From Escherichia phage phiWec187, in the sequence record LC739536.1: DNA of 64,000 nucleotides, one strand, 5' to 3'. Every line of letters begins with the position of its first letter. The stretch's first letter is position 1. The position numbers and the translations under genes are program-made. Below, one piece after another: positions 11,277 through 51,306 of this stretch. The notes under the pieces were generated by a model. The model searched no databases, was not told the origin of the DNA, and was given only the letters and a program-made list of their open reading frames with translations.

Positions 11277-12161
11277 TTATTTTTGAATAGTTGACTTAAT
11301 AAGGTCTTGCATAATACCACGGATTTCATTAAAGCACAGAAGAACAGATGCTTCAAAAGATCCTTCTTCATCGTTAAAGTATTTAGGGAATTTAATACCA
11401 CTCAACTTAAATTCTTTATCAACAATAAAGTTAACGAAACCGTCATATTCCAGGCCAATGGCAACAACGTGCTTACCATCTTCCATAAGTTCTACTGCAC
11501 GAGATTCATAAAGGGATTCTTTACTCCATACAACCACACCTTCCGAATCTTCAAGTTTAATATAATTACCAAGGGTCAGTCGTTCAGCCTCATGTTCTTC
11601 TAAGATGGTATCAAAACCTTTAATAATGGCTTCTTCGTGTACACTAAACGGCAGGACTGGGAAAGTACCCAACACCCCACGAAGAAACACAGCAATATCT
11701 TCACTAATTTTCTTAGTACCATTAAGAACGTAGGTAATACTGTTTTCAGTGTCTACAACAACATAGTTATAGAAATCATCTGCCTCTGTCTCTGGGAGCA
11801 GAGAAAACACGATATCAGCCTCAATTGCTTTTTTACTTTCTTTGTCCAGGAAGAATTCTTTAGTAGGGTTTGCAGCAATAAACTCTTGTTCCATCTCCTG
11901 GAGTTTTTCATTAAGAATGCGTTTAACTTTTTTCTTGTTAACTTTCTTAACAGATTGCCCTACTTTAATAACCTCTAAACCAGAGAACACTTTTACATAG
12001 GAACCATCATCTTCAAAACGAACAAGACCAATGGTATGTGCTTGTTGACCCTGTGCCACAACAAAATCCAGCGGTTTGTCTGTTACTGTGTTCAGTGCGG
12101 AAATAGACAGACCATCACCAGAAATCAGGGTTACGCAAGATTTGAAATTTTTAGCAAACAT
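11277..12161 (-). CDS. hypothetical protein
   Basis: 294-aa ORF; weak N-terminal resemblance MFAKNF to RdgC-type proteins, not relied on. Confidence 0.4.
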   Translation of the reverse strand: MFAKNFKSCVTLISGDGLSISALNTVTDKPLDFVVAQGQQAHTIGLVRFEDDGSYVKVFSGLEVIKVGQSVKKVNKKKVKRILNEKLQEMEQEFIAANPTKEFFLDKESKKAIEADIVFSLLPETEADDFYNYVVVDTENSITYVLNGTKKISEDIAVFLRGVLGTFPVLPFSVHEEAIIKGFDTILEEHEAERLTLGNYIKLEDSEGVVVWSKESLYESRAVELMEDGKHVVAIGLEYDGFVNFIVDKEFKLSGIKFPKYFNDEEGSFEASVLLCFNEIRGIMQDLIKSTIQK

Positions 12162-12485: not shown

Positions 12486-13208
12486 TTAAGCAATGATTGC
12501 TGCGATATTAGGTTTAACAAAGGTAGATGGTTTCATAATTTTACCTTTGTCATCAAAGAATACGTACACCTTTTGAACTTCGTTATATACAGCATGTACC
12601 CCAGTATAAGAACCTTCTGCACGATCTTTGCTTCGCATCTCGATAGCATCGCACTCTTTTTCAAGAGCTTCAATAATATCCTTAGTTTCCCAAATAGCTA
12701 GGAGTTGCTTCTTGGTAGGATACTTGGACTCATTGCTATTCAACACTTCACGCATAACCTTCTTCTCGTTATAAACAGAACGCACCAAAGTATCTCGTGC
12801 CATACGGGTAAGTGTAAGAGACATTAAGGCAAATTGCAAGTCATTTTCTACCATTTTATCAAATTCAATGATAACATCGTAAATGTTCTCTGCCAGAACA
12901 TCTCCTGTTGGCATTTCCAGAGCTTTATCAACACCTTCTTTACCAAAGAACATAAACGCCAGGTAGGATGCTACCACAAAAATATCTGCTGCTGCATCAA
13001 GTAATTCAACGTGATCATTTTCCTGTGCTGCTGCTTGAAACTCTTTAAGTTCTTCTCGTACAAAAGAAAGTTGAGCTTCAAACATCTCTTGAGTAAATTC
13101 TGGAGTTACTCCACCGCGTGCCTTAGCATTCCAAGCAACAATTTGATCGGCAGCTTTGATAAAGAAGCTATTGTCCACTTTTACTTGTTTGAAAAAATTC
13201 TCGATCAT
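12486..13208 (-). CDS. putative MazG-like nucleotide pyrophosphohydrolase
   Basis: REELKEFQAAAQENDHVELLDAAADIFVV resembles the MazG EExxE...D helix motif. Confidence 0.4.
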   Translation of the reverse strand: MIENFFKQVKVDNSFFIKAADQIVAWNAKARGGVTPEFTQEMFEAQLSFVREELKEFQAAAQENDHVELLDAAADIFVVASYLAFMFFGKEGVDKALEMPTGDVLAENIYDVIIEFDKMVENDLQFALMSLTLTRMARDTLVRSVYNEKKVMREVLNSNESKYPTKKQLLAIWETKDIIEALEKECDAIEMRSKDRAEGSYTGVHAVYNEVQKVYVFFDDKGKIMKPSTFVKPNIAAIIA

Positions 13209-13217
13209 TGTTTCTCC

Positions 13218-13424
13218 TTATTTAAAATATTGTTCTAACAAAACACTAATGCGAACTACCGATTCGCCCATATACGCCCCAGCACAGAGGAAAACAACAA
13301 ATCTACAAAAATTGCAGTACCATTTGTCCACTGGAAACGAGGCTAACATTATAATTGCAATAGCAATTAACATCATAAGAACTGTTACTAATACCATATT
13401 ACCTCTTACTCTGCTGGTTCCCAA
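13218..13424 (-). CDS. small membrane protein
   Basis: 68 aa with two hydrophobic helices. Confidence 0.4.
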   Translation of the reverse strand: MGTSRVRGNMVLVTVLMMLIAIAIIMLASFPVDKWYCNFCRFVVFLCAGAYMGESVVRISVLLEQYFK

Positions 13425-14569
13425 GTACCTGGAATCATCTTACGTAAACGGACACCTGTTGGTTTCGTAGGTATTCCACCATCGGAAAACTCTTCATACT
13501 CAATCTCAACAAATTTACCAATTAACATTTCGGCATTTTCTGCTTTACGATAGTTAATGGTTTCATCTGAATCCTTACGCATCAGGAATTCGACTACTTT
13601 ACCATTTTCCATCTCTCCTGTCAATACCCCGTCACCATTTTTATCACGCTTTGCACTTACCACTTTAACTTCAAGCGTCTGACGTGGTTTACGTTTAATA
13701 ACATCATAAGAACGTTTATCGAATTCGTAAACACCTTTTGCGTTACGATACACCACACCTTCCGCTTTCTCGCGTAGGGCTTTTGCATAGAAAGCCTCAA
13801 ACTGTTCTTGGTTTTCAATGTACTCTGTATGTACTACACAAATAAGTTCATCTAAACCTTTATCTTCAACAACTTCTTTTAGAGCAGCCAAAACTTGAAC
13901 CCTCTTCTCAAATGGTACAGATGCCACAGGAACATCATATACATAGTATTTAAGAAGCGGTGTGTTAGCATTATGCTTTTTCCACGCACTATTAATTTGT
14001 TGAAGGCTAAGGACACCCAAGCCAGCAAAAACTTCACCGTCAAGAGGATGACCAACTACTTCTTTAATGAAGGTTGGAATTTCTTCCCAGTGAGGTGGAA
14101 GTTTATATACCTCCCCAGCTTTAGATAAACATTCACCTTGCATGTTAATCATTGAACGTAGACCATTCAATTTATATTGTGCATAACCTGGGAACAAAAC
14201 ACGGTCAGCATAATCTTTATAATCCTGACATTTCATGGGTGTGGAAGGAACATGGTTTTCAGCTTCCTCTTTTGTTTTATAATACCCATTCTTAAGTTGC
14301 TTTGTCCATTTGGCAAGAGCTTCTATTTCAGCTTGTTCTTCTGCTGTTGTTTCATTTGAGCGACCAATATTTTTAGGTTCTGCCGTATAAGATTTGCTAG
14401 TGATCTTTCCACCTAATTGACCATGAGCAACAGTTACAACACTACCTTCGGTATAGACTGACCACTGTCTAATTTTACCTGTAGAAGTTTTACCATACAA
14501 TGTAGGATTAGTTTGTTTCATCTTTAACCTCCAGTTGCGAAAGAACCCATTTAGCCATTTCAATTTCAC
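13406..14569 (-). CDS. ATP-dependent polynucleotide ligase (nucleotidyltransferase superfamily)
   Basis: Motif I KLNGLR, motif III LDGEVF, motif IV EGVVYR, motif V DVIKRK in correct order and spacing. Confidence 0.55.
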   Translation of the reverse strand: MKLKWLNGFFRNWRLKMKQTNPTLYGKTSTGKIRQWSVYTEGSVVTVAHGQLGGKITSKSYTAEPKNIGRSNETTAEEQAEIEALAKWTKQLKNGYYKTKEEAENHVPSTPMKCQDYKDYADRVLFPGYAQYKLNGLRSMINMQGECLSKAGEVYKLPPHWEEIPTFIKEVVGHPLDGEVFAGLGVLSLQQINSAWKKHNANTPLLKYYVYDVPVASVPFEKRVQVLAALKEVVEDKGLDELICVVHTEYIENQEQFEAFYAKALREKAEGVVYRNAKGVYEFDKRSYDVIKRKPRQTLEVKVVSAKRDKNGDGVLTGEMENGKVVEFLMRKDSDETINYRKAENAEMLIGKFVEIEYEEFSDGGIPTKPTGVRLRKMIPGTWEPAE

Positions 14570-15262: not shown

Positions 15263-15667
15263 TTATTGTAGCTTAAGTGAACTGCGAAGACGTTCCTCTT
15301 GCTGATCACGAATATGTTGTGGAACCTCATGAATTGAATCGTTACCGTGCCTATTCTCCACAACTAAAGAAATAACTTGATAACCAAACTCTTCGGCAAG
15401 AGTTAAATAAGGTTTAAGTTCTTTTTCTGTAGTAGAGGTATTAGAAACAATAATCTTTTCAACACCATACTGCATATATTTTTGTACTTTGACACGACAC
15501 CATTGGTGTGCTTTATGGATATTCTCTTGTTTCCACTCATACACACCATCTTCAGTGTAGTGGTATTGATCTGCCTCACAAATAGGCCAATGATTTTCAG
15601 AGATAATTTCTGCTACTGTAGATTTACCTGCACCTGAAACACCACGTAAAATGATAAGTTGTTTCAT
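15263..15667 (-). CDS. P-loop kinase, polynucleotide-kinase-like
   Basis: N-terminal MKQLIILRGVSGAGKST Walker A. Confidence 0.5.
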   Translation of the reverse strand: MKQLIILRGVSGAGKSTVAEIISENHWPICEADQYHYTEDGVYEWKQENIHKAHQWCRVKVQKYMQYGVEKIIVSNTSTTEKELKPYLTLAEEFGYQVISLVVENRHGNDSIHEVPQHIRDQQEERLRSSLKLQ

Positions 15668-16600
15668 TTAGCCTCCAAAGAAGTTTTCTATTTCTTTACG
15701 TCGCTCTTGTGGATCTAGAGCAGCCCATTGAACCTTCGTAAAGTTATTTCGAAGCCATTCTAGCAAAGTATAATATTCTTCGTCAACAATTTGTTTAGCA
15801 TTGTTTGGGTTGTCCCAAATCATATCCCACTTCTTATTGCCACCACGCATAAGGAACTTCTTAGCAAGATAGTATGGTGACTTAATCTTTAAGAGTAAGT
15901 TAAACGGATAGTTTGTTTCACGAACAACAAAGCCTTCGTGTCGACAATGTTTAGACATTTCAACAACATCTGAAAATTTAATCATCGGATAAACTTCAGG
16001 ACGTTTAAATTTTGTAATAGATGCAATCCCATCAAGAACACCTTCAGGTAACATGAAACTTGTTCCATCAAGATTTTGAATTCTTGCTCCAATTAAGTAT
16101 GCGCCTGGTTCTTCTTCGACAATATGTGGATCAGAAGGATCACAGATTTCAAAAAGAAAAGTTGCTTTTGCACTCTCTGTCCACTTAATGAAATACTCTA
16201 TGTCGTCACACTCGGAAACAATACGGTTCTTTGCCATAATTGCGAAATCTGATTCTAGGCTCCCTGTTGTTGATACAACAAGTTTCCCTTTGTACACACC
16301 TACAGATGCCATAAAACCGTTTACTTTACGGACAGCATCTACAATTTCGTCTGCTGGAAGATCTGTACCATTTTCAAAACGATTAAAGATTTTAGTAAAA
16401 GGCCAAATAACAACATTGTCTTCTGAGTCAACAACCAACCCACGACAATCTAAAAGTCGTTTGTCAACGTTCCACAAATTATCCCAGAATACATTGTTTT
16501 TGTATTTAAGCACAGCAAGACCAGCATACTCTCCAGATTTAACTTCTTTTTTATGCACTAAACCTTTTGCAATCAGGTCATCACAATTGAACTTAGCCAC
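15668..16600 (-). CDS. putative RNA-ligase-like nucleotidyltransferase
   Basis: Motif I KVNGF, motif IV EGFVVRE, motif V LLLKIK with Rnl2-like spacing. Confidence 0.45.
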   Translation of the reverse strand: MAKFNCDDLIAKGLVHKKEVKSGEYAGLAVLKYKNNVFWDNLWNVDKRLLDCRGLVVDSEDNVVIWPFTKIFNRFENGTDLPADEIVDAVRKVNGFMASVGVYKGKLVVSTTGSLESDFAIMAKNRIVSECDDIEYFIKWTESAKATFLFEICDPSDPHIVEEEPGAYLIGARIQNLDGTSFMLPEGVLDGIASITKFKRPEVYPMIKFSDVVEMSKHCRHEGFVVRETNYPFNLLLKIKSPYYLAKKFLMRGGNKKWDMIWDNPNNAKQIVDEEYYTLLEWLRNNFTKVQWAALDPQERRKEIENFFGG

Positions 16601-16601
16601 C

Positions 16602-17153
16602 TTAATCTCCTTTGATTATCTTATGATGGTCTACAACAACAATATCACGCTTATCCATAATAGATATGATTTCGTCAAAATGCAAGATTTTCCCGTGTGC
16701 ATCCCAACCAACATCCAACATCTTCCCATACAAATGATCAGGGAATGATCCGTGAGAGTGTCCGTGTAGCATGATTGATCCATGCCCTTGTTTATTCCAT
16801 GCAGCCATAGGGTAATGGCTTAAGACGAAAAACAGCTTCTGATATTTCACTTCGTCATAATAAATCACTTCTCCATACTCTGCAAGCACTTTTCTGTGTT
16901 TACTGTAATCATGGTTCCCAACACAGTAAGTAATATCCCCTTGGAGACGGGAAGCAATCTTACGGGTATCTTCTTCAGTCCCGAAACAGAAGTCCCCAAG
17001 ATGGTACATCTTTACTCCTGGTGTTGTGGCACATTTATTCCATGCTTCGATCAGTGCTTCTGTCATATGCTCCATATCTTCCCACGGGCGATATTCAGGA
17101 GCAAACTCTCGGATACGTTTGTGCATAAAATGCAAATCACTTGTAATAAACAT
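16602..17153 (-). CDS. calcineurin-like metallophosphoesterase
   Basis: DLHF, GDFCFG, GNHDY and GHSHG metal-binding motifs in canonical order. Confidence 0.7.
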   Translation of the reverse strand: MFITSDLHFMHKRIREFAPEYRPWEDMEHMTEALIEAWNKCATTPGVKMYHLGDFCFGTEEDTRKIASRLQGDITYCVGNHDYSKHRKVLAEYGEVIYYDEVKYQKLFFVLSHYPMAAWNKQGHGSIMLHGHSHGSFPDHLYGKMLDVGWDAHGKILHFDEIISIMDKRDIVVVDHHKIIKGD

Positions 17154-17512
17154 TAGTATAATCCCTCGCTGAATAGTTCACTGTTGTGACCATTTCTTTC
17201 GTAGTTAATTTGTTTGGCGTTATCTGCAATGATATAAGCATCTTTGCGACTCCACCAATTATAATACTGATCAATAAACCCTTGATTATCAGGTAAGCAA
17301 AACAGTTTATCAATCAATCCTGCATCTTTTAAAACATTAAGTTGTGCAGATAGTACAGGATTTGCATGCCTAACACAAGGAATAATTAACTCTTCACCAT
17401 TGTTGAGAATATACTTATTCGCAGCGCATACTATAACACGTTGAGCATAGTGATCCTCACCAATCCAAGTAAGAGGTTGGTAACAAATATCATGTTGATT
17501 AGTAGCGCACAT
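17153..17512 (-). CDS. hypothetical protein
   Basis: ATG at 17510-17512 preferred over track TTG at 17515. Confidence 0.45.
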   Translation of the reverse strand: MCATNQHDICYQPLTWIGEDHYAQRVIVCAANKYILNNGEELIIPCVRHANPVLSAQLNVLKDAGLIDKLFCLPDNQGFIDQYYNWWSRKDAYIIADNAKQINYERNGHNSELFSEGLY

Positions 17513-17661
17513 CAATTTTCTCCGTACTCTTTTAATCTATCAGCGAAAAAACTGTAGTCAGGAAGTAAAAGATCATTACTCGTATTGCTCCAGTTTTCTT
17601 CCTCTTCATAGATAAAACGCCCTTCATCCTCTTCTTGCTCTGACCAAACTGAGTAATGCAT
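17512..17661 (-). CDS. small acidic protein (about 49 aa)
   Basis: Not in track; hand translation MHYSVWSEQEEDEG...; stop overlaps next ATG. Confidence 0.3.
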   Translation of the reverse strand: MHYSVWSEQEEDEGRFIYEEEENWSNTSNDLLLPDYSFFADRLKEYGEN

Positions 17662-17670
17662 AATACCTAC

Positions 17671-18045
17671 TTAATAGTTAACACGTTTAATTTCAACACC
17701 ATAGGATGAAATAAAATTTTCCTTAGCTAACATATATTTACCAGCAGCAGAAGGATTTGATGTATGAACATAGATAGTTTTAAGAGCATCCCATTCACCC
17801 GCGTACAACATACACTCTACATCTAAGAATGCATGATATCCTTCCTGATCTTCTCCAAGATCATTATCGAAGTGTATCTCTGAGATATCATTGAAATTAT
17901 CTTCATCTGAAATAAAAGATAACCAATCCTCAAAAGATTTTAACCAAATGGCATCCTCATAACCATAATCTTTAGGATCTCTTAAATCGTCTAACCAAAG
18001 AATTTTAGCCACTATTAACCCCCTTCCTGTTTCTCTTCTTTCCAA
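17671..18045 (-). CDS. hypothetical protein
   Basis: 124-aa ORF. Confidence 0.45.
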   Translation of the reverse strand: MERRETGRGLIVAKILWLDDLRDPKDYGYEDAIWLKSFEDWLSFISDEDNFNDISEIHFDNDLGEDQEGYHAFLDVECMLYAGEWDALKTIYVHTSNPSAAGKYMLAKENFISSYGVEIKRVNY

Positions 18046-19269: not shown

Positions 19270-19638
19270 CTAATTAATGTCAGCACTATGATTGTTGAGA
19301 GTATAGGATACTCCATCGCCCAAGTCAACATGAATCTCAACTCCTAACTGTCTTTCTAATGGTAAACGTTTTGAGAATTGATAATTACAAAGTTTACAGT
19401 CTAAGTCAAGCAATTCATGTTTGCTTAAACCTAGGATGATAACTTTGCTTCCCACTGTCCACTCAATACCTTCAAAGTTATCTCTTCTTTTCAAAATGTC
19501 AAGTAAGAAGATGATTTGTTGCCATTCCGTAGACAAGTCTTCTTCATAGAACGCAGAACAAAAAGTTTTATCATCGTAGAAAGCATACATTATGCCTCCA
19601 TCTATTGTTTCACTTCTAACGTAACGTGTGACCCTCAT
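19270..19638 (-). CDS. hypothetical protein
   Basis: 122-aa ORF; first gene of the minus-strand block. Confidence 0.45.
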   Translation of the reverse strand: MRVTRYVRSETIDGGIMYAFYDDKTFCSAFYEEDLSTEWQQIIFLLDILKRRDNFEGIEWTVGSKVIILGLSKHELLDLDCKLCNYQFSKRLPLERQLGVEIHVDLGDGVSYTLNNHSADIN

Positions 19639-19979: not shown

Positions 19980-20008
19980 TTGACTTTAGATCTATCTGTA
20001 TGTAGAGT
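19980..20008 (+). promoter_or_regulatory. sigma70-like promoter for Prs-like gene
   Basis: TTGACT-N17-TAGAGT with AT-rich UP-like tract 19920-19979. Confidence 0.5.
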
Positions 20009-20047
20009 AGAGAACATAAAGTCCTAACTCAACTAAGGAGATAAACA

Positions 20048-20941
20048 ATGAAAGTTAGTATTCTACATGGTGTTGACTGTTATGTTACTGATGTAGACGT
20101 TAAAGTCTTTACATTCTCTGGTGGAGAACAACATGTTCAACTAGATACGAATCTATCAGGTTTCAATCATGCTACAGACAGAATCTTACTCTCTTTAGAA
20201 GTAAGATCTGCTAAAGACTTGATGACTTTGGTTATGACTAAGAATGCATTGGACAATATGCTATATCATAAACCATATTGTGTTGATTTACTCATGCTGT
20301 ATGTACCGTATGCACGACAAGACAGAGTGTGTGAGCCTGGGGAAGCATTCGGAGTTAAAGCCTTTGCTTCTATAATTAATTCATTAAATTTCTCACGTGT
20401 TATCGTTGCTGATCCACATAGTGATGTTACTCCAGCAGTGTTTGACAGACTCTGTGTAATACCTCAAGAAGAGATTGCTTACGAAACTTTAAAGTGGAAG
20501 TTACGTATGGAGAATTTTGCTCTTGTTAGTCCTGATGGTGGTGCTCTTAAGAAAATATTTAAATTATCTAAGAAAATGTCTTTAGATGTGTTCTGTGCAG
20601 AGAAGGTTAGAGATACTGCAACAGGTGCTATTGTTCGTACAGACATTTCTGTACAGGATTTCAATAAGCGTAACCTGATGATCGTAGATGATATCTGTGA
20701 CGGCGGTAGAACTTTTATTGAATTGGCTAAAGTGCTACGTGCTCGTAACGCAGGTAAGATTGAGTTATATGTTACACACGGTATCTTTTCTAAAGGTCTT
20801 AAAGAGTTAAGTGAGCACTTTGACTGCATTCATTCTCTTAATGTGTGGGAAGATAACATCCAAGAAGATTCCGGTGTTCTTGTTAAGAATCAGTCAGATT
20901 TGCAACAACAAATTGTATCTCCATACGTGTGGAATTTTTAA
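20048..20941 (+). CDS. prs: ribose-phosphate pyrophosphokinase family protein (Prs-like)
   Basis: PYARQDR, DPHSD, VSPDGG and DDICDGGRT signatures; consensus promoter and AAGGAG RBS upstream. Confidence 0.8.
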   Translation: MKVSILHGVDCYVTDVDVKVFTFSGGEQHVQLDTNLSGFNHATDRILLSLEVRSAKDLMTLVMTKNALDNMLYHKPYCVDLLMLYVPYARQDRVCEPGEAFGVKAFASIINSLNFSRVIVADPHSDVTPAVFDRLCVIPQEEIAYETLKWKLRMENFALVSPDGGALKKIFKLSKKMSLDVFCAEKVRDTATGAIVRTDISVQDFNKRNLMIVDDICDGGRTFIELAKVLRARNAGKIELYVTHGIFSKGLKELSEHFDCIHSLNVWEDNIQEDSGVLVKNQSDLQQQIVSPYVWNF

Positions 20942-20951
20942 ATAATAAGTG

Positions 20952-20980
20952 TTGACAATAGGGAGTATGCTTAGTAAGAT
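20952..20980 (+). promoter_or_regulatory. sigma70-like promoter for NadV-like gene
   Basis: TTGACA-N17-TAAGAT; -10 lies inside inverted repeat GGGAGTAT...ATACTCCC. Confidence 0.5.
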
Positions 20981-21012
20981 ACTCCCACACTAACAAACAA
21001 GGAGACATAACT

Positions 21013-22746
21013 ATGAATATTTTTGCACCTTTTGCTACTGATTGGTATAAACCTGGTCACAAGCAGATGTACAACCAAAATACAAAACTCATTTTCTCTA
21101 ATTTAACTCCTCGTAATGATAAAAACTTTGCACACTATGCAGATCGTGAAGCACGTGGTGTAATTGTTTTAGGTATTCGTCGAGCAGTTACTGATGCTCT
21201 TGTAACTATGTGGGATGGCTTCTTTAAAATGTCTCGTAGTGCAGCAGTAAATAAATTTTATCGTATGTCTAAGAATGCATTAGGTGCTTCTGCTCCTTCT
21301 GCTGAATGTTGGGGAGAATTGCACGATTTAGGTTATCTTCCGCTAGAAGTTCGATCTCTGCCAGAAGGTGTTTTGTGTCCTATTGGTGTTCCTGTGTTTA
21401 CTGTGCATAACACTTTAGAAAAATTCTTTTGGTTAACTAACTATGTGGAAACACTCTTGTCAGATGAAACTTGGAAGACAATGACTAATGCCACAGCAGC
21501 TTTTCAGTATAAGCGTATCGCTATGGCGTATGCGATGGCAACGTGTGATAACATTGATCACGTTAATTTCCAGTGTCATGACTTTAGCCTACGTGGTTTA
21601 AGCAATATCGAAGATGGTTATAAGAGTGGTATCGCTCATTTGGCATCTTTCACAGGTACAGATAATATTCTGGCTATTGAAACTGTGCATGATTACTATG
21701 GTATTGATTATGATCAGTTTGTTGCAGGTTCTATTCCGGCAACAGAACATTCAGTAGCAACGACTAACATTGGAGCTATTGTTGAAGATCTGAAGAAACA
21801 TTTCCCACATCTTAAAGATGATGTTGATGGGCTTCGTTATGTAGCAGAGAAAGAGTTTCTTCGCCGCTATATTGAAGAAATTGTTCCAGAAGGTTTTTGT
21901 TCATATGTAGCAGATTCTTATGATTACTGGGCTGTCTTGACTCGCATTCTGGTAGAATTGAAAGAGTCCATTATGTCACGAAATGGTCGTCTTGTTATTC
22001 GTCCAGACTCAGGAGATCCGGTTAAAGTTGTTGCAGGATACAATGTTGAATCTTTTGATAACTATGAAGACCTTTTAAATAATGGTATTGCTACAGCCAC
22101 TGAAGTAGTACATTTGGCTGATGTTAATAAGTATTACAATGTTCTTCAGGATTGCAGTGTTGCTGATTGTATTGATGAAACTTATGAGATTCCTTATTGT
22201 GAAGCAGTAGGTTCTATTCAAATCCTTTGGGAAGTGTTTGGTGGTACTATCAACCGAAAAGGCTACAAGGTTCTTGATCAGCACATCGGTATGATTTATG
22301 GTGATTCTATTACTGTTGAACGAGAACACGAGATCTTACGCCGACTGAAGAAGAAAGGTTTTGCAGCTTCCAATATTGTATTTGGTGTTGGTAGTTATAC
22401 TTATCAGTTCAATACACGAGATACTTTTGGTTTTGCTGTTAAAGCAACAGGTAGTATCATCGGTGAACACGAAATTTTGGTAAGTAAGGAGCCTAAAACT
22501 GATCCTGGTAAACGCTCTGCAAAAGGTTTTATTAAGGTTGTTAAGGATACAAATGGTAAACTTTCTCTTGTGGATAATCTTTCTTTTAAAGATATCCAAG
22601 ATGAAGACAATGAGTTAAAAGTTATCTTCAGGGATGGTACGGTTATTACACCACAAGTAGAAGGACGTGATGAAACATTTACTGATATCCGTAACCGTGT
22701 TGATGTAGAGGTTCTTCGTACTATGGGAACCATCCAGGTTGACTAA
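21013..22746 (+). CDS. nadV: nicotinamide phosphoribosyltransferase family protein (NadV/NAMPT-like)
   Basis: 577 aa; N-terminus ATDWYKPGHKQMY is NAMPT-like; own promoter. Confidence 0.75.
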   Translation: MNIFAPFATDWYKPGHKQMYNQNTKLIFSNLTPRNDKNFAHYADREARGVIVLGIRRAVTDALVTMWDGFFKMSRSAAVNKFYRMSKNALGASAPSAECWGELHDLGYLPLEVRSLPEGVLCPIGVPVFTVHNTLEKFFWLTNYVETLLSDETWKTMTNATAAFQYKRIAMAYAMATCDNIDHVNFQCHDFSLRGLSNIEDGYKSGIAHLASFTGTDNILAIETVHDYYGIDYDQFVAGSIPATEHSVATTNIGAIVEDLKKHFPHLKDDVDGLRYVAEKEFLRRYIEEIVPEGFCSYVADSYDYWAVLTRILVELKESIMSRNGRLVIRPDSGDPVKVVAGYNVESFDNYEDLLNNGIATATEVVHLADVNKYYNVLQDCSVADCIDETYEIPYCEAVGSIQILWEVFGGTINRKGYKVLDQHIGMIYGDSITVEREHEILRRLKKKGFAASNIVFGVGSYTYQFNTRDTFGFAVKATGSIIGEHEILVSKEPKTDPGKRSAKGFIKVVKDTNGKLSLVDNLSFKDIQDEDNELKVIFRDGTVITPQVEGRDETFTDIRNRVDVEVLRTMGTIQVD

Positions 22747-22817
22747 ATAAAAACTTCGTGATAAGATTAAGGTAAGGAGAGCCTGCAACTGCCCTGGATG
22801 GGCTTCACGAAGGATTT

Positions 22818-23039
22818 ATGAAACAACATAATTTTTATTTTCGTTGCCGAGCCTGTAACAGACACTTGACTAATCACTCCCGTAGAGACAGGAATGGTAA
22901 TATTCAAGAGTCGGATCTATGCTCGATTTGTACAAGTTTGGCATTCGACGACAGTCCCGAAAGGGTTTATCAACATCAAAGTGTAACTGATCTTCTTCTA
23001 AATTACACAGCACCAGAGGAGGAATTAGATTTCACATAA
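22818..23039 (+). CDS. zinc-ribbon protein with acidic C-terminal tail
   Basis: CRACNRH...CSICTS pair; ends PEEELDFT, similar to the NrdB tail. Confidence 0.5.
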   Translation: MKQHNFYFRCRACNRHLTNHSRRDRNGNIQESDLCSICTSLAFDDSPERVYQHQSVTDLLLNYTAPEEELDFT

Positions 23040-23200: not shown

Positions 23201-23230
23201 TTGACAACATAGCTAGTTATTTGCTAAGAT
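23201..23230 (+). promoter_or_regulatory. sigma70-like promoter
   Basis: TTGACA-N18-TAAGAT. Confidence 0.45.
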
Positions 23231-23260: not shown

Positions 23261-23527
23261 ATGACAGAACGTACTTATGGTAAAGAATTGATTGAGAAGC
23301 ACGTATTGATTGATAATAAAGGTGGAGCAATCTTTATTTTTGAACCTGAATCAGTTCTTACTGAAAACGAAAATGGTAGCGTTAGCCTTAAAACAGAAAG
23401 TTTGGTAATTGACTTCCTTGCTCTTCTGGATGAAATGGGGCTTCCTCACGAAGAAGAAGCAGCTATTGCTTTGATTGCAGTTCTTCTGGAGAAACGCGAA
23501 GCTGGTGAAATGACCCAGTATGCTTAA
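23261..23527 (+). CDS. hypothetical protein
   Basis: 88-aa ORF with promoter TTGACA-N18-TAAGAT upstream. Confidence 0.5.
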   Translation: MTERTYGKELIEKHVLIDNKGGAIFIFEPESVLTENENGSVSLKTESLVIDFLALLDEMGLPHEEEAAIALIAVLLEKREAGEMTQYA

Positions 23528-46346: not shown

Positions 46347-49222
46347 TGTCAAGAATTAAGCACAGAATTGACAATGTTTTTCAACTGATCGATGGACATA
46401 TTCAGTTCTTAGATCGTAATACAGGTTTAACTGTAGATCCTACAGTGCAACACTATGTATTAAACCCACAAAACGTTCTAGCTAATAACAGACACTTTAT
46501 AAACTGGACTGCTCAAGAAGGGCAACCAAACGGGGATGCTACAACAGAAGGTCAATCCGTGCTTATTCTTGGTTGCGCTTATGCATACCTAGCTTCCGGC
46601 GATACAAAGTATTTAGACTCTGCTAAAAAATATTGGCAAGCCTATATAGATTACTTCTTTGGTGGTCAACCTATCCCAGATCCGCCAGCAAAGTATCGCC
46701 CTAACTGGATTATTAACGGTAAAGAACCACGTCTTGCACATTATCCTCTTACAGATGATGGCTACCCTACACACGGAGGTTTTAAGGGTAGCTTAATGAC
46801 GTGGACTAACGGTAGAACAGTTATTCCTCATGGTGCTCCGCATTGGGGAGAATACCTTGACAAAGCATGGTTTGCTTTTAATGGTAATCTAGGATGGAAC
46901 TCTGTAAACGCTACAGTTTATGCTGTTAATGCAGATGGTACAACAGATTGGTCTAAGAAGGGAGATCAATGGGATGTTGATTGGATCATTGATCGTCTAG
47001 GACGTAAAGTTGATTGGGATGGAAATATCTTAGAAGAAGGTTTTCCAACATCTCAATACGGAACAGTTCAACTAAAAAATACTTCTGTAAATGGTACATA
47101 TAAATTTAACTATGCGACTTGTAACCCTGTTGAACACGGTGGTTATTTAATGGAGCGTAACACTATGTGGCATAACAGACCAGTTAACGTTCCGGTAGAA
47201 ATGGGCTTTCAGGATAATGCGTCAGATGCCGAAACTTGGTGGTGTGATGCTAATTACCTGATGTACCAAATTACAGGAGAAAGAAAATATTGGTTATGCT
47301 GGCAGTCTTCACTGTTAGTGTGTCAAGATTACTCAAACATTGATATGTTTGATAAATTCTTCCGTAAGTCTACATATGCAACTATTCCGTTTACAGATGG
47401 TATCTCTTACGATTATTCGTATCCATCTACAGCAATACCTAAATATTCAAGAGATACTTTAGGTTATATTGTTATTAGACAAGATGTTGCTGCTCAAACA
47501 ACATTAGAACAGCAATCCATTTGGTTTAAAGTTGATCAGAACTCTAAGTTACGAGTTCAGTTCCAAGGTGTAGATGACGCAGGACATGGTATCCTTTTCC
47601 GTCCAGAATTGAAGCTAAGTAATACCAAAGATGAAAATAACACAGTAACTTACCGTTGTGGCTTACCACTAGGTACAGCTAATATGACAAGCATGGATAT
47701 TCCATTATCCAGCTTTATGAGAAGTACCCCTCCAAATGGTGGAACATATATTATCGCAGATCCGCGAATTATTGTTGACTGGGGTGACAATACTGTGGTA
47801 CAATTTAAGTATGTAACAGGTATTACTGGAACTAATGATGACCAGATTGTTACTGCATCAATGGATACGGATGGTGGTGTCACTGTTGGTTTTTGGTTAA
47901 CCCCTACATCAAAAGCTAATGTTAAGTCTATCACATATAGAACATATGAAGATGACTTTAACATGACTATCACGGATGCTCAAGGTTGGAGATGGTGGGC
48001 TATGCTACCTAAAACGCAAGGAGCATGGAGTACGAAGACTTTATCAGCCTCTGATTTTAAGTTAAGTGCTTACCAGCCTAATCATCCAGAAACAGATCCT
48101 AAACCTTCAGCAATAAATCTTACTGCTGTAGATCAGGTAAATTTAGTTCTCGATACGGCTCCTGTCAATGGTTTAACAGGAACAATAGATTTCTATTGTA
48201 TTAACGATGTGCCTGAAAGATATTCGTCATCTTCTGGTGATGATTATACCATGTACTTCCGTATCACTGTACAGGCTTCAAGTCCTCATACTGCTAAGTT
48301 AGGTGATTGTACTATTATTGACTATAAGTTAAATAGTCTTAATTACACACCAGGAATAATTCCATTCTCTAATATCAGTGACCCAAACACTGCATTGTAT
48401 GATGGCTGGCGTGGTATTCCATACCCAGGATACCAATACCCTTCCTTATACTGTTTTGCAGGTAGAGATATTGATTGGACGCGTTTAAATAACAGTATCA
48501 ATTTCTTGTATGATTCTCAAATGTGGTTTTATAACACATTCGATCCTGTGATGCCTGGGCCTATGGCACAAGCGTATGTGTGGGATCGTTGGGATGCAAG
48601 AAAATACGGTGAACCAAATACGTTCACAATGAAACACTGGAATGAAAAAGCGTGGGATGGTTATGAAGCTCGTGCATTCTACTGTGCTTGTCATGCTGTA
48701 TACGAACTTGTACAAAGAGGAGAAACACCTCCTGAAAAACTAGTAACAGTTTGTAAAAATTGGATCAACTATCTTAAATGGTTCCAAGACAATAATGATG
48801 GAAGAACACCAACTATCTTTAACCCAGATGGTACAGTTCTTGCGCCTATAGATGACTTTACTAGTCATATGTCTGCACTGTTTATGGCGGGTTGTTCAAT
48901 CATGGGCTTGGCAGGTTATGATTCACAAATTCCAAACATTGGTATTGTAGCAGACAGATGTTTTGATCTGATTCAGCAAAACTATATTGTGCTTTCCCCT
49001 AACCATCCGATGAATGGTTCCTGGAGTGTTGCACCACGCCCAGATTCAGATAACGGAATGTTCTTTGGTTTCCATGCTGGAGAACTATTACGTGGTTTTG
49101 GTTTATATGCCTTGTATCGTAAACTAAACCCTCAAAACGCTTTACCAATTTTGGATAATAGTAACATACCAACACTAACTGTTCTAACTATGAATGATAT
49201 TAGTGTTGATGTAACCAAATAA
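46346..49222 (+). CDS. large structural protein, function unknown
   Basis: 958 aa inside baseplate/fibre module; Trp/Tyr-rich. Confidence 0.4.
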   Translation: MSRIKHRIDNVFQLIDGHIQFLDRNTGLTVDPTVQHYVLNPQNVLANNRHFINWTAQEGQPNGDATTEGQSVLILGCAYAYLASGDTKYLDSAKKYWQAYIDYFFGGQPIPDPPAKYRPNWIINGKEPRLAHYPLTDDGYPTHGGFKGSLMTWTNGRTVIPHGAPHWGEYLDKAWFAFNGNLGWNSVNATVYAVNADGTTDWSKKGDQWDVDWIIDRLGRKVDWDGNILEEGFPTSQYGTVQLKNTSVNGTYKFNYATCNPVEHGGYLMERNTMWHNRPVNVPVEMGFQDNASDAETWWCDANYLMYQITGERKYWLCWQSSLLVCQDYSNIDMFDKFFRKSTYATIPFTDGISYDYSYPSTAIPKYSRDTLGYIVIRQDVAAQTTLEQQSIWFKVDQNSKLRVQFQGVDDAGHGILFRPELKLSNTKDENNTVTYRCGLPLGTANMTSMDIPLSSFMRSTPPNGGTYIIADPRIIVDWGDNTVVQFKYVTGITGTNDDQIVTASMDTDGGVTVGFWLTPTSKANVKSITYRTYEDDFNMTITDAQGWRWWAMLPKTQGAWSTKTLSASDFKLSAYQPNHPETDPKPSAINLTAVDQVNLVLDTAPVNGLTGTIDFYCINDVPERYSSSSGDDYTMYFRITVQASSPHTAKLGDCTIIDYKLNSLNYTPGIIPFSNISDPNTALYDGWRGIPYPGYQYPSLYCFAGRDIDWTRLNNSINFLYDSQMWFYNTFDPVMPGPMAQAYVWDRWDARKYGEPNTFTMKHWNEKAWDGYEARAFYCACHAVYELVQRGETPPEKLVTVCKNWINYLKWFQDNNDGRTPTIFNPDGTVLAPIDDFTSHMSALFMAGCSIMGLAGYDSQIPNIGIVADRCFDLIQQNYIVLSPNHPMNGSWSVAPRPDSDNGMFFGFHAGELLRGFGLYALYRKLNPQNALPILDNSNIPTLTVLTMNDISVDVTK

Positions 49223-49230
49223 GGAAAATA

Positions 49231-51306
49231 ATGAAACAGGCTATTTTTACTGTAACTCGAAATACGAGAGTAAATGCCAGTTCATTCAGCTATAAGACCG
49301 TCGATGGAACGGCGGTCGCTGGTAGAGATTATGTAGCTAAACAGGGAACAGTAACGTTCCCTTCTGATGCAGATTCTGCTACTGTAGTGGTTGATGTATA
49401 TGAACGCCCGGCAAACTCTTTAGATCTTTATTTTACTCTTGAGATTACTAGCATAAGTCAAAATAACATGATGATCAATGAAGAAATTCGTTGTGTTATT
49501 ACGACTAATCAATCGAATACAACCCCGCTAACTTGGCCTGTTGTGAAGTCTAGAATGTTTGATCCTAAGTTTTGGACAATAGATTCTCAAGCAACAGAAA
49601 GTTGTTCTATTATCTCTAATGGTGATTCTTTCACAGCAAGAATGGTTAATAGGACAGTGGCTGGTCTTGCTGGGATTATTTGGTCAACTTACGATAAATA
49701 TGATCACAAAGGATTAGGCTACCAAGAACATTCTGATTTAAGTAAAGAAAAACTTTGGTTTAAAATGGAACTTAGTCAAGGTGTTCCTGGATTAAAAGAA
49801 GAAAAATTAATGCCATCCTTAACAGTGACACTGAAGGATGAAACAGTTCATTATATATCTCTAAACTTTTATGCAGAAGAAGTTTCAGAGGACGGTAAAA
49901 CAGCAATAATCAAATTAGATTTCTCAAATTTAAAATCTGGGCCAGAAAATGATATTGTTGTTGACACTACACAGATAGATAACATGTTCTTCTCCTTGAT
50001 TTCCGCAAGGTATCAAGAAATTGAAGATGTTATACCAGTAGACAATATAGATCTTTCCTTTAAGTTTACCATACTAGAGCCTGATACTGGTTACAGTATG
50101 ATGAATATGGGTAATTTAAATGTTCCGGCGCACACCATAAGAATGTGTACATCTTATGATGATATGTATAACCTAACCCCAGAGCGAGTTATTTCTAACA
50201 CCTATAGATTAGGTTATAGAGATATGATTAACCATTATAATGGTATGTCACACTATTATCAATTTAGTTGGGATGCTGGATCTAATAAATGGGCTTTGAA
50301 CAGAACAGAATATTTAAACCCAGCAACAGAGGCCTGGTTTGATAATTTCCACGCTAATGCAAAAGCTATGGGCTACACAGTAATGAACTCCTTAAGTTTT
50401 GAAATTATGAGTACAGTGTGTCCTGTAGAATGGGTACAACATACTTGGAATGATGATCTGGCTGCTACAGGTTATGAGCCACCAAGTTATGTTTTATCTC
50501 CTTCAATTGATGAAGGGATGAATTATTTACAAGGTGTAATAAATAAGATAGCTTCTATATCCGCTGCTAATGATCTTCCGGTTATTATTCAGGTTGGTGA
50601 ACCGTGGTGGTGGTATAACACAGCTACCAATCTCCCGTGTATTTATGATTATGCAACCAAAGTTGCATTTAATAATGAAACTGGATTATATGCACAAGAT
50701 GTTGGTACAGTTAAGAATTATAAAACTGGTACACCATATGATGAATATTATGCATTCTTATCTAAAACATTAGGACTGCGTGTTGCTAAATTTGCAACAG
50801 ATACTAGATTAGCATATCCTGGAGCAAAAGTTACATTGTTACCATTTGTACCATCCATCTTAGGTAACGGTATGATGGAATTTGTTAACTTCCCTAAAGA
50901 TTATTATATCCCAGAAAACTTTGACTTTTATTGTTCAGAATGTTATGACTGGTTGTTGGAAGGTCAGATGGAAAGATCTTTCGATGCTATCACAATACCT
51001 AATGAACAATTAGGTTTTAGTTATGATAAGATACATTATCTTGCAGGGTTTGTTCCAGATGCAACTCTAGCACCATTATATGGCTTTGATCCTGAATCAG
51101 ACTACAGAACATATTTGTGGAAAATGATTATAGGTAATATTGTATTGAATGACCAGAGGTTTGTTGGTTTGTATCAATACATATGGGCTTATCCACAAAT
51201 TATGGCAGATTCATTAACTGTTCTTAATTCAAAATCCCAAGTTTTTTATATGGGTAACGTACCTCTGAATGTCTTTTTACAAGATACAGTATATGTTTCT
51301 TCTTAA
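49231..51306 (+). CDS. large structural protein, function unknown
   Basis: 691-aa ORF following the 958-aa gene. Confidence 0.4.
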   Translation: MKQAIFTVTRNTRVNASSFSYKTVDGTAVAGRDYVAKQGTVTFPSDADSATVVVDVYERPANSLDLYFTLEITSISQNNMMINEEIRCVITTNQSNTTPLTWPVVKSRMFDPKFWTIDSQATESCSIISNGDSFTARMVNRTVAGLAGIIWSTYDKYDHKGLGYQEHSDLSKEKLWFKMELSQGVPGLKEEKLMPSLTVTLKDETVHYISLNFYAEEVSEDGKTAIIKLDFSNLKSGPENDIVVDTTQIDNMFFSLISARYQEIEDVIPVDNIDLSFKFTILEPDTGYSMMNMGNLNVPAHTIRMCTSYDDMYNLTPERVISNTYRLGYRDMINHYNGMSHYYQFSWDAGSNKWALNRTEYLNPATEAWFDNFHANAKAMGYTVMNSLSFEIMSTVCPVEWVQHTWNDDLAATGYEPPSYVLSPSIDEGMNYLQGVINKIASISAANDLPVIIQVGEPWWWYNTATNLPCIYDYATKVAFNNETGLYAQDVGTVKNYKTGTPYDEYYAFLSKTLGLRVAKFATDTRLAYPGAKVTLLPFVPSILGNGMMEFVNFPKDYYIPENFDFYCSECYDWLLEGQMERSFDAITIPNEQLGFSYDKIHYLAGFVPDATLAPLYGFDPESDYRTYLWKMIIGNIVLNDQRFVGLYQYIWAYPQIMADSLTVLNSKSQVFYMGNVPLNVFLQDTVYVSS

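Follow-up and report, generated by a model that had tools for sequence, protein, structure and literature searches.

A probable NAD+ reconstitution pathway 1 gene pair, adps and namat, in the phi92-like Escherichia phage phiWec187

What chemistry is carried out by a Prs-like and a NAMPT-like protein that an Escherichia coli phage encodes side by side? We addressed this question for two adjacent genes of Escherichia phage phiWec187 (sequence record LC739536.1), within a 64,000-nucleotide (nt) stretch of its DNA that is called the window below. An earlier note on this DNA had suggested that the pair restores NAD+, possibly from ADP-ribose (ADPR), once Thoeris or SIR2-type defences have depleted it, and had held that a choice between ribose-5-phosphate and ADP-ribose could not be read from the sequence. 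Our computational analysis supported the first statement and spoke against the second. The two genes very probably represent the core two-gene form of NAD+ reconstitution pathway 1 (NARP1), and the clade of the Prs-like protein, its altered binding loop and the clamp motif of its NAMPT-like partner all point to ADPR and ADPR pyrophosphate (ADPR-PP) as substrates. The proposed rebuilding of NAD+ equals the published NARP1 mechanism, and proteins of the phi92 type are in the tables of that publication.

NARP1 consists of a Prs-like and a NAMPT-like phage gene (Osterman et al. 2024, bioRxiv 10.1101/2024.02.11.579819). The first encodes Adps, which converts ADP-ribose to ADPR-PP with ATP, and the second encodes Namat, which combines ADPR-PP and nicotinamide to give NAD+ (bioRxiv 10.1101/2024.02.11.579819). 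The corresponding features of the window are as follows (aa, amino acids).

20048..20941, plus strand: adps, putative ADPR-PP synthetase of the Prs family, 297 aa (family matches, profile scores, tree)
20600..20614, plus strand: catalytic flexible-loop segment EKVRD with K186 (alignment)
20687..20713, plus strand: ribose-phosphate binding loop DDICDGGRT, aa 214–222 (alignment)
21013..22746, plus strand: namat, predicted nicotinamide ADPR-transferase of the NAMPT family, 577 aa (family and structure matches)
21106..21129, plus strand: selectivity-clamp loop (SCL) region TPRNDKNF, K37 at the position of SPbetaL1 R40 (alignment)
21769..21858, plus strand: insertion 1 relative to SPbetaL1 Namat, aa 253–282 (alignment gap to 9w5x; Bas63 Namat is also extended at this point)
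22039..22209, plus strand: insertion 2 relative to SPbetaL1 Namat, aa 343–399 (alignment gap to 9w5x; Bas63 and Ag3 Namat are also extended at this point)
22390..22422, plus strand: selectivity-clamp helix (SCH) motif GSYTYQFNTRD, aa 460–470 (fits the Namat consensus)

Both open reading frames (ORFs) that the note had described were present on the plus strand, at 20048–20941 (297 aa) and 21013–22746 (577 aa), each with an ATG start. They are adjacent, adps preceding namat with a gap of 71 nt; the published definition of NARP1 asks for a Namat within 10 genes of Adps (bioRxiv 10.1101/2024.02.11.579819), and here the two are direct neighbours. The pair was also said to head a plus-strand block beside a tRNA cluster, and it does so: the last minus-strand gene ends at 19638, the plus-strand block starts at 20048 after a divergent intergenic region of 409 nt, and 15 tRNA genes follow from 23535. 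Terminase, portal and tail genes are nearby as well, so that the context is that of a phage; NARP1 is for the most part carried by phages. The window comes from a phi92-like E. coli myovirus (Justusliebigvirus, Stephanstirmvirinae) and is 99% identical to such genomes; at the locus itself, nucleotide identity to phi92-like phages, including phi92, PaulScherrer (Bas60) and VEcB, was 98.4–99.3%. Of 56 matching phage records, 55 had the whole pair with a nucleotide identity of at least 95%. The 297-aa protein differs from phi92 gp107 by one residue, and the 577-aa protein differs from phi92 gp108 by four.

We examined the Prs-like protein first by family. All three phosphoribosyl pyrophosphate (PRPP) synthetase motifs that had been quoted for it were found (PYARQDR, aa 87–93; VSPDGG, aa 160–165; DDICDGGRT, aa 214–222). 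It matched phrog_619 (5e-91, 306 bits) and TIGR01251, ribose-phosphate diphosphokinase (2e-34), the latter with 118.8 bits against a cut-off of 113. TIGR01251 was the only NCBIfam Prs model whose cut-off was reached, and the protein fell below the cut-offs of all others; the best Prs-specific models gave 99.6 bits (cut-off 297) and 98.0 bits (cut-off 296). The family matches of both proteins were far beyond chance, and the quoted motifs are real.

A separate clade test was run because the published Table S1 of Adps sequences also holds ordinary bacterial Prs. Sequences for the profiles and the tree were taken from Osterman Table S1, together with E. coli Prs. The Adps profile rested on Namat-linked phage proteins and excluded those of the window and phi92. 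Results showed that the window protein scored 276.6 bits with the Adps profile and 82.7 bits with the cellular Prs profile, a 3.3-fold difference, whereas E. coli Prs showed the reverse (140.7 bits with the Adps profile, 491.9 bits with the Prs profile). In a neighbour-joining tree with E. coli Prs and seven actinobacterial Prs on its cellular side, the Namat-linked phage proteins split from the cellular enzymes in all bootstraps (200/200), and the window protein was placed in the phage group. Within that group it stood among the Adps of Gram-negative phages, nearest to those of PVP-SE1, phiR1-37 and KN2-1.

Comparison of the ribose-5-phosphate binding loop with that of E. coli Prs had been proposed as a check, and we carried it out. 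The loop of the window protein, DDICDGGRT, is the same as that of Bas63 Adps and is altered relative to the Prs loop, DDMIDTGGT, with Thr replaced by Gly and Gly replaced by Arg in the part that grips the phosphate. The catalytic lysine is conserved: K186 aligned with K162 of SPbetaL1 Adps, K190 of Bas63 Adps and K194 of E. coli Prs. Our alignment also revealed that Adps proteins do without the N-terminal ~20 residues of Prs, and that the C-terminal segment of Prs is missing or unrelated in them. We infer that the altered loop and termini would make room for the ADP moiety, and the loop, like the clade, points indirectly to ADPR, rather than ribose-5-phosphate, as the likely acceptor of the window Adps.

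The neighbouring protein had been described as having a NAMPT-like N-terminus. The similarity to NAMPT was confirmed, but it is not confined to the N-terminus and extends over essentially the whole protein (aa 7–564). Matches were to NF006629 (1e-137, 460 bits), phrog_448 (2e-187, 625 bits) and PF04095, the NAPRTase family (2.5e-37). The best solved structures were those of SPbetaL1 Namat (9W5W/9W5X, E = 1e-117), with human NAMPT at ~1e-48, and we regard the homology of the predicted protein to these structures as unambiguous. The second-best structural match, PDB 9ke8, has a partial clamp motif; our literature search found no publication on this entry.

Identity between the window Namat and SPbetaL1 Namat was 47% over 447 aligned residues. 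Seventeen of the 21 residues that contact NAD+ in the SPbetaL1 protein are identical in the window protein, including R330 (= R306, which is essential), D332, D217, F191, D10 and Y12, and the other four are conservative replacements (Y462 for F392, F466 for Y396, S432 for A362, K37 for R40). The NAMPT-like core is the same as in SPbetaL1 (D10, Y12, F191, R194, D217, A243, H246, R330, D332), and the catalytic His246 is thereby kept. The determinants of Namat specificity have been defined structurally, and the use of ADPR-PP also needs determinants outside the clamp; the published signature is GS-X-phi-X-phi-X-phi-TRD, in which X is aromatic (PMC12774641). The window motif GSYTYQFNTRD fits this consensus, with Y, Y and F at the aromatic positions and T, Q and N at phi. 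It aligned with GSFTYQYNTRD of SPbetaL1; the same columns of Xanthomonas Nampt read GMGGALLQKVDRD. The clamp loop is variable among Namat proteins: its third residue is Arg, Lys or Tyr, and where this is Lys or Tyr the next residue stacks on the adenine (PMC12774641). In the window loop, NDKNF, the third residue is the allowed Lys37, the fourth is the non-aromatic Asn38, and Phe39 follows; the loop is six residues longer than that of SPbetaL1. The two insertions listed above are a lineage trait and no novelty of the window, because Bas63 Namat carries them at the same positions.

The pathway itself has been tested in several homologs. The NARP1 operon occurs in four phages of the BASEL collection; one of them, Bas63, became sensitive to SIR2-HerA when NARP1 was removed, and NAD+ was reduced (bioRxiv 10.1101/2024.02.11.579819). 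Bas63 overcame SIR2-HerA even in a pncC nadR double-deletion host (bioRxiv 10.1101/2024.02.11.579819), which excludes a route through nicotinamide mononucleotide (NMN) for this phage. ADPR-PP was detected in infected cells and, with Bas63, only if the defence system was present (bioRxiv 10.1101/2024.02.11.579819). Purified SPbetaL1 Adps made ADPR-PP from ADPR and ATP and gave no Prs-type product, and its K162A mutant was inactive; SPbetaL1 Namat made NAD+ from ADPR-PP and nicotinamide, and preferred ADPR-PP over PRPP (bioRxiv 10.1101/2024.02.11.579819). Homologs have been tested in vivo for Bas63 of E. coli, and in vitro for SPbetaL1 of Bacillus and DyoEdafos of Mycobacterium; FADO, Vibrio phage Gary and a bacterial module of Paenibacillus foliorum are further tested cases. 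In Vibrio, NrsAB of ICP1 has been studied by genetics against Nezha; ICP1 Adps is ~40% identical to the window Adps. NARP1 has since been extended by NARP1-AP, by RyDEP and by structures of Namat.

The sequence of events predicted for the window pair is the following. An NAD+-depleting host defence (SIR2-HerA/Nezha, type I Thoeris, DSR1/2, SEFIR or a similar system) would cut NAD+ into ADP-ribose and nicotinamide. Adps (20048–20941) would then use ATP to pyrophosphorylate ADP-ribose at its free ribose C1'', which yields ADPR-PP, and Namat (21013–22746) would exchange this pyrophosphate for nicotinamide and so yield NAD+ directly. That is, because there would be no NMN intermediate and no need for host NadR or PncC, replication of the phage could continue.

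The presence of the genes, their family and clade membership and the conservation of their catalytic and specificity residues were established in this analysis, and from these we infer that the window pair has the same activity as the tested homologs. Several points weigh against this reading. Identity between the window Adps and the tested Adps proteins is ~28–40%. No structure or specificity map of any Adps was found in our literature and structure searches, and any assignment of the selectivity for ADPR over ribose-5-phosphate to particular Adps residues is tentative. The literature likewise gave no experimental work on phi92-like phages or their proteins, Bas60 and phi92 included, and the function of the phi92-type pair therefore rests on homology. 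In vitro, SPbetaL1 Namat still makes NMN from PRPP when ADPR-PP is absent (bioRxiv 10.1101/2024.02.11.579819), so that the window Namat may have some canonical activity. Finally, stacking of the clamp loop on adenine is uncertain, because Asn follows Lys in the window protein where Bas63 (SDKWF) has the adenine-stacking Trp. The tested homologs bracket the window pair, and this supports the functional assignment despite the modest identity of the Adps proteins.

Two other chemistries were weighed against NARP1. The pair could be a canonical salvage route, in which a true PRPP synthetase and a true NAMPT/NadV make NMN, host NadR/PncC convert it to NAD+, and the supply of precursors for lytic growth is boosted. 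Public annotation of every relative says as much ('ribose-phosphate pyrophosphokinase' and 'nicotinamide phosphoribosyl transferase'), the 297-aa protein just reaches the TIGR01251 cut-off (118.8 against 113), and SPbetaL1 Namat retains some PRPP-dependent NMN synthesis in vitro. Nevertheless, the protein reaches the cut-off of no further NCBIfam Prs model, scores 3.3 times higher with the Adps profile than with the Prs profile and groups with Adps in 200/200 bootstraps, and its partner has a clamp motif that true Nampt lacks. With the purified SPbetaL1 homolog yielding ADPR-PP from ADPR and ATP and no Prs-type product, and Bas63 prevailing over SIR2-HerA in the pncC nadR double-deletion host, we consider canonical salvage very unlikely. 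An arrangement like NARP2, in which a NAMPT homolog makes NMN from PRPP and a phage Nmnat/NatV completes NAD+, as in vibriophage KVP40, would agree with the NAMPT-family membership of the 577-aa protein, and NARP2 is a real phage pathway. Here, the partner gene is Adps, the phi92 protein has the label 'Adps-associated' and not 'Nmnat-associated' in Osterman Table S2, and the clamp motif indicates ADPR-PP as the substrate. No Nmnat, NadR or NatV is annotated in the whole 145-kb genome of Antha, a 99.3%-identical relative, and the one generic 'nucleotidyltransferase' of Antha is a weak match to a poly(A)-polymerase head with no cytidylyltransferase-type NMNAT domain. We rejected NARP2 as extremely improbable; the absence of an NMNAT in Antha was judged by annotation and one Pfam scan, which a very divergent NMNAT would escape.

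A different doubt concerns the role of the pair and leaves NARP1 chemistry in place. The main task could be to recycle ADPR and nicotinamide from the phage's own NAD+ consumers, or to maintain NAD+ homeostasis, rather than to counter defence. Away from the NARP1 locus, the Antha genome has genes for a Sir2-family protein (PF02146, E = 4e-22) and for a Macro-domain protein that may handle ADPR, and bacterial chromosomal NARP1 modules exist for which a homeostatic role has been suggested. Against this, the Sir2 gene is outside the window. Sir2 deacylases, moreover, release O-acyl-ADPR and not free ADPR. Deletion or restoration of NARP1 in Bas63, FADO, the SBSphiJ knock-ins and ICP1 gave phenotypes on hosts with NAD+-depleting defences, and Bas63 ADPR-PP was seen only with a defence system present. 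A predominantly internal role therefore seems highly improbable, and counter-defence by NARP1 remains the reading that we prefer.

The interpretation put forward in the earlier note is a rediscovery of a known system. The finding was already catalogued, because the proteins of phi92, VEcB and PaulScherrer (Bas60) appear with 'Namat within 10 genes: Yes' in Table S1 and as 'Adps-associated' in Table S2 (bioRxiv 10.1101/2024.02.11.579819). The remaining novelty is limited to a distal homolog of Adpp, described below, and to the Namat insertions. Of little weight as a discovery, the assignment has two practical sides. Public records of this phage group still say PRPP synthetase and NAMPT/NAPRT, an annotation from which the wrong chemistry would be predicted. 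Phi92-like phages, for their part, are therapy candidates, and knowing that they may carry a counter-measure to NAD+-depleting defences helps the prediction of host range. The residue-level comparison also indicates to what extent sequence alone tells Adps from Prs and Namat from Nampt.

Each gene had been credited with its own consensus promoter. We found promoter-like sites in both upstream gaps, but neither is a consensus promoter (9/12 and 10/12 matches), so that the claim was overstated. The expression signals are listed here.

19980..20008, plus strand: promoter-like site before adps, TTGACT-17-TAGAGT, only 9/12 consensus matches, in the 409-nt divergent intergenic region
20036..20041, plus strand: ribosome-binding site AAGGAG for adps (sequence reading; phi92 annotates an AGGAG site at the equivalent position)
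20952..20980, plus strand: promoter-like site before namat, TTGACA-17-TAAGAT, 10/12 matches, in the 71-nt gap
21000..21005, plus strand: ribosome-binding site AAGGAG for namat (sequence reading; phi92 annotates an AGGAG site here)

The −10 boxes of both promoter-like sites are non-canonical, and the number of promoter-like sites in the region, 17, was not above that in shuffled sequences (13.5 ± 4.2). The composite motif TTGACW-N17-TARRRT occurred four times in the window against 0.35 expected, and three of the four were in successive gaps at the NARP1 locus; this enrichment is biased upward, because the pattern was derived from the same sites. No terminator-like site was found between adps and namat, and co-transcription of the two genes is thus also possible. 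Further downstream on the plus strand, sites of the same unusual class were observed at 22739–22767 (TTGACT-17-TAAGAT) and 23201–23230 (TTGACA-18-TAAGAT), where they stand before two small ORFs 3' of namat. The sites around adps and namat suggest that TAAGAT serves as the −10 box of a class of phage promoters.

These two small, conserved plus-strand ORFs, between namat and the tRNA cluster, encode proteins of 73 aa (22818–23039, with a CxxC...CxxC pattern) and 88 aa (23261–23527), for which no significant Pfam match was found. We considered them as NARP1 accessories and dropped the idea: they are confined to ~130 records of the phi92/phAPEC8 lineage, compared with ~1,570 records that have Adps, and for that reason are not general NARP1 partners.

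We also looked for the accessory domains of the extended pathway. A Pfam scan of the nine ORFs neighbouring adps and namat gave no Macro domain (the Adpp component of NARP1-AP) and, even at E up to 1, no RyR domain (PF02026, RyDEP). A tblastn search of the window with Gary Adpp and the Antha Macro protein gave no match, and phi92-like phages are not in the published NARP1-AP table. Elsewhere in the Antha genome (PP925826.1), at 47593–48327, a 244-aa 'phosphatase' has a C-terminal region of 150 residues (aa 94–243) that is 41% identical to Gary Adpp (E = 2e-36), itself a validated ADPR-1''-phosphate phosphatase (Osterman et al. 2026 preprint). This Macro protein, which has an extra N-terminal region of ~90 residues, is encoded ~62 kb from adps and namat, outside the window, next to a ComF-like phosphoribosyltransferase (PF15610, 1e-41) and a HAD hydrolase. 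Its conservation extends over the genus, and 54 phage records carry the Macro protein at an identity of at least 95%. Phi92-like phages might run a 'split' NARP1-AP, with the distal Macro protein feeding ADPR into NARP1 in trans, an idea that we hold to be rather unlikely. If it were true, these phages would also resist aRES-type defence, and the published operon-based count, in which 15% of NARP1 phages carry Adpp, would underestimate the extended pathway. The Sir2-family gene of Antha mentioned above lies at 1209–2021, again outside the window; its co-occurrence with NARP1 in one genome prompts the question whether NAD+ is consumed by the phage itself.

Upstream of the pair, four minus-strand genes were recognized by their domains.

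15263–15667, minus strand: AAA_33 P-loop kinase (domain match)
15668–16600, minus strand: RNA ligase of the T4 Rnl1 family (E = 4e-14)
16602–17153, minus strand: calcineurin-like phosphoesterase, a metallophosphoesterase (domain match)
17671–18045, minus strand: cREC_REC protein, 'cyclic-phosphate processing receiver' (E = 1.4e-14)

Together these genes (15263–18045, 2 kb upstream of NARP1) form a probable RNA/tRNA-repair module, which resembles the Pnk and Rnl1 system of T4 that counters anticodon nucleases. We had considered the cREC_REC protein as a processor of ADPR-cyclic-phosphate, a by-product of NARP1. This idea was dropped, and its phosphoesterase, Rnl1-type ligase and kinase neighbours were read as a separate RNA-repair module. 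Parts of the module carry the public labels 'phosphoesterase', 'ATPase' and 'RNA ligase and tail fiber protein attachment catalyst'. With the RNA-repair module, NARP1 and the tRNA cluster, this stretch abounds in functions that probably serve counter-defence. The same early-gene block contains a 240-aa protein with a nucleotide pyrophosphohydrolase domain of the MazG/PRA-PH type (12486–13208, minus strand; PF01503, E = 3e-7), and near it are genes for an ATP-dependent DNA ligase (13406–14569) and an RdgC-like protein (11277–12161).

Some observations concern related database entries. Four 'Campylobacter phage' records (host C. jejuni; MG065639.1, MG065645.1, MG065656.1 and MG065689.1) are 99% identical to the phi92-like locus; probably they carry an erroneous host label or contaminating sequence. 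Within the namat coding sequence (~21605–21755 of the window), the phi92 record has a 151-nt 'hypothetical tRNA' at 49736–49886. It is probably an annotation artefact, because ARAGORN gave no tRNA at this place in the window. In Osterman Table S1, the entry FJ373894_00125 of Shigella phage Ag3 is a protein that begins as Adps and goes on as Namat, and in phrog_12872 (547 positions) the first ~220 positions correspond to the window Adps and the remainder to the window Namat. These could be a natural Adps-Namat fusion in some Vequintavirinae-like phages, or a frameshift or annotation artefact.

How, then, does the window pair compare with known systems? Bas63 (JohannRWettstein, Felixounavirus; genes 79–80) is likewise a lytic E. 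coli myovirus with adjacent adps and namat in this order on one strand. It shares the identical loop DDICDGGRT, the aligned catalytic Lys, a clamp loop of the Lys type and the positions of both Namat insertions. The two differ in that their Adps proteins are 31–35% identical, the clamp loop is SDKWF in Bas63 and NDKNF in the window, and the window phage belongs to another subfamily (Stephanstirmvirinae); Bas63 has been tested by deletion, whereas the phi92 type is known by homology. With SPbetaL1 (Adps WIT26982.1; Namat PDB 9W5W, 9W5X) the window pair shares the class of SCH motif and the catalytic lysine (K162 = K186). In contrast, Adps identity is 28–35%, the SPbetaL1 loop is DDLSSFGGT, its Namat is without the two insertions, and its clamp loop has Arg40 where the window protein has Lys37.

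Compared with the cellular enzymes, Adps shares with E. coli Prs the fold, the catalytic core, FSGGE, YARQDR, the DPHS/DLHA histidine, the catalytic Lys and the DD of the PRPP loop, but is 19–26% identical to Prs and has a changed phosphate-binding loop. Namat shares with NAMPT (human, Xanthomonas) the fold, the nicotinamide pocket, the catalytic His and the ribose-binding Arg and Asp, but Nampt is without the aromatic clamp residues that Namat carries. NARP1-AP of Vibrio phage Gary (Adps, the Macro phosphatase Adpp and Namat; Osterman et al. 2026 preprint) has the same core of Adps and Namat, and differs in that the window operon is without a Macro-domain gene. Closest of all are phi92 (gp107/gp108), PaulScherrer (Bas60) and VEcB, whose public records name the pair Prs and NAMPT; they have essentially the same genes, the same neighbours and the same tRNA cluster, with no functionally notable difference from the window.

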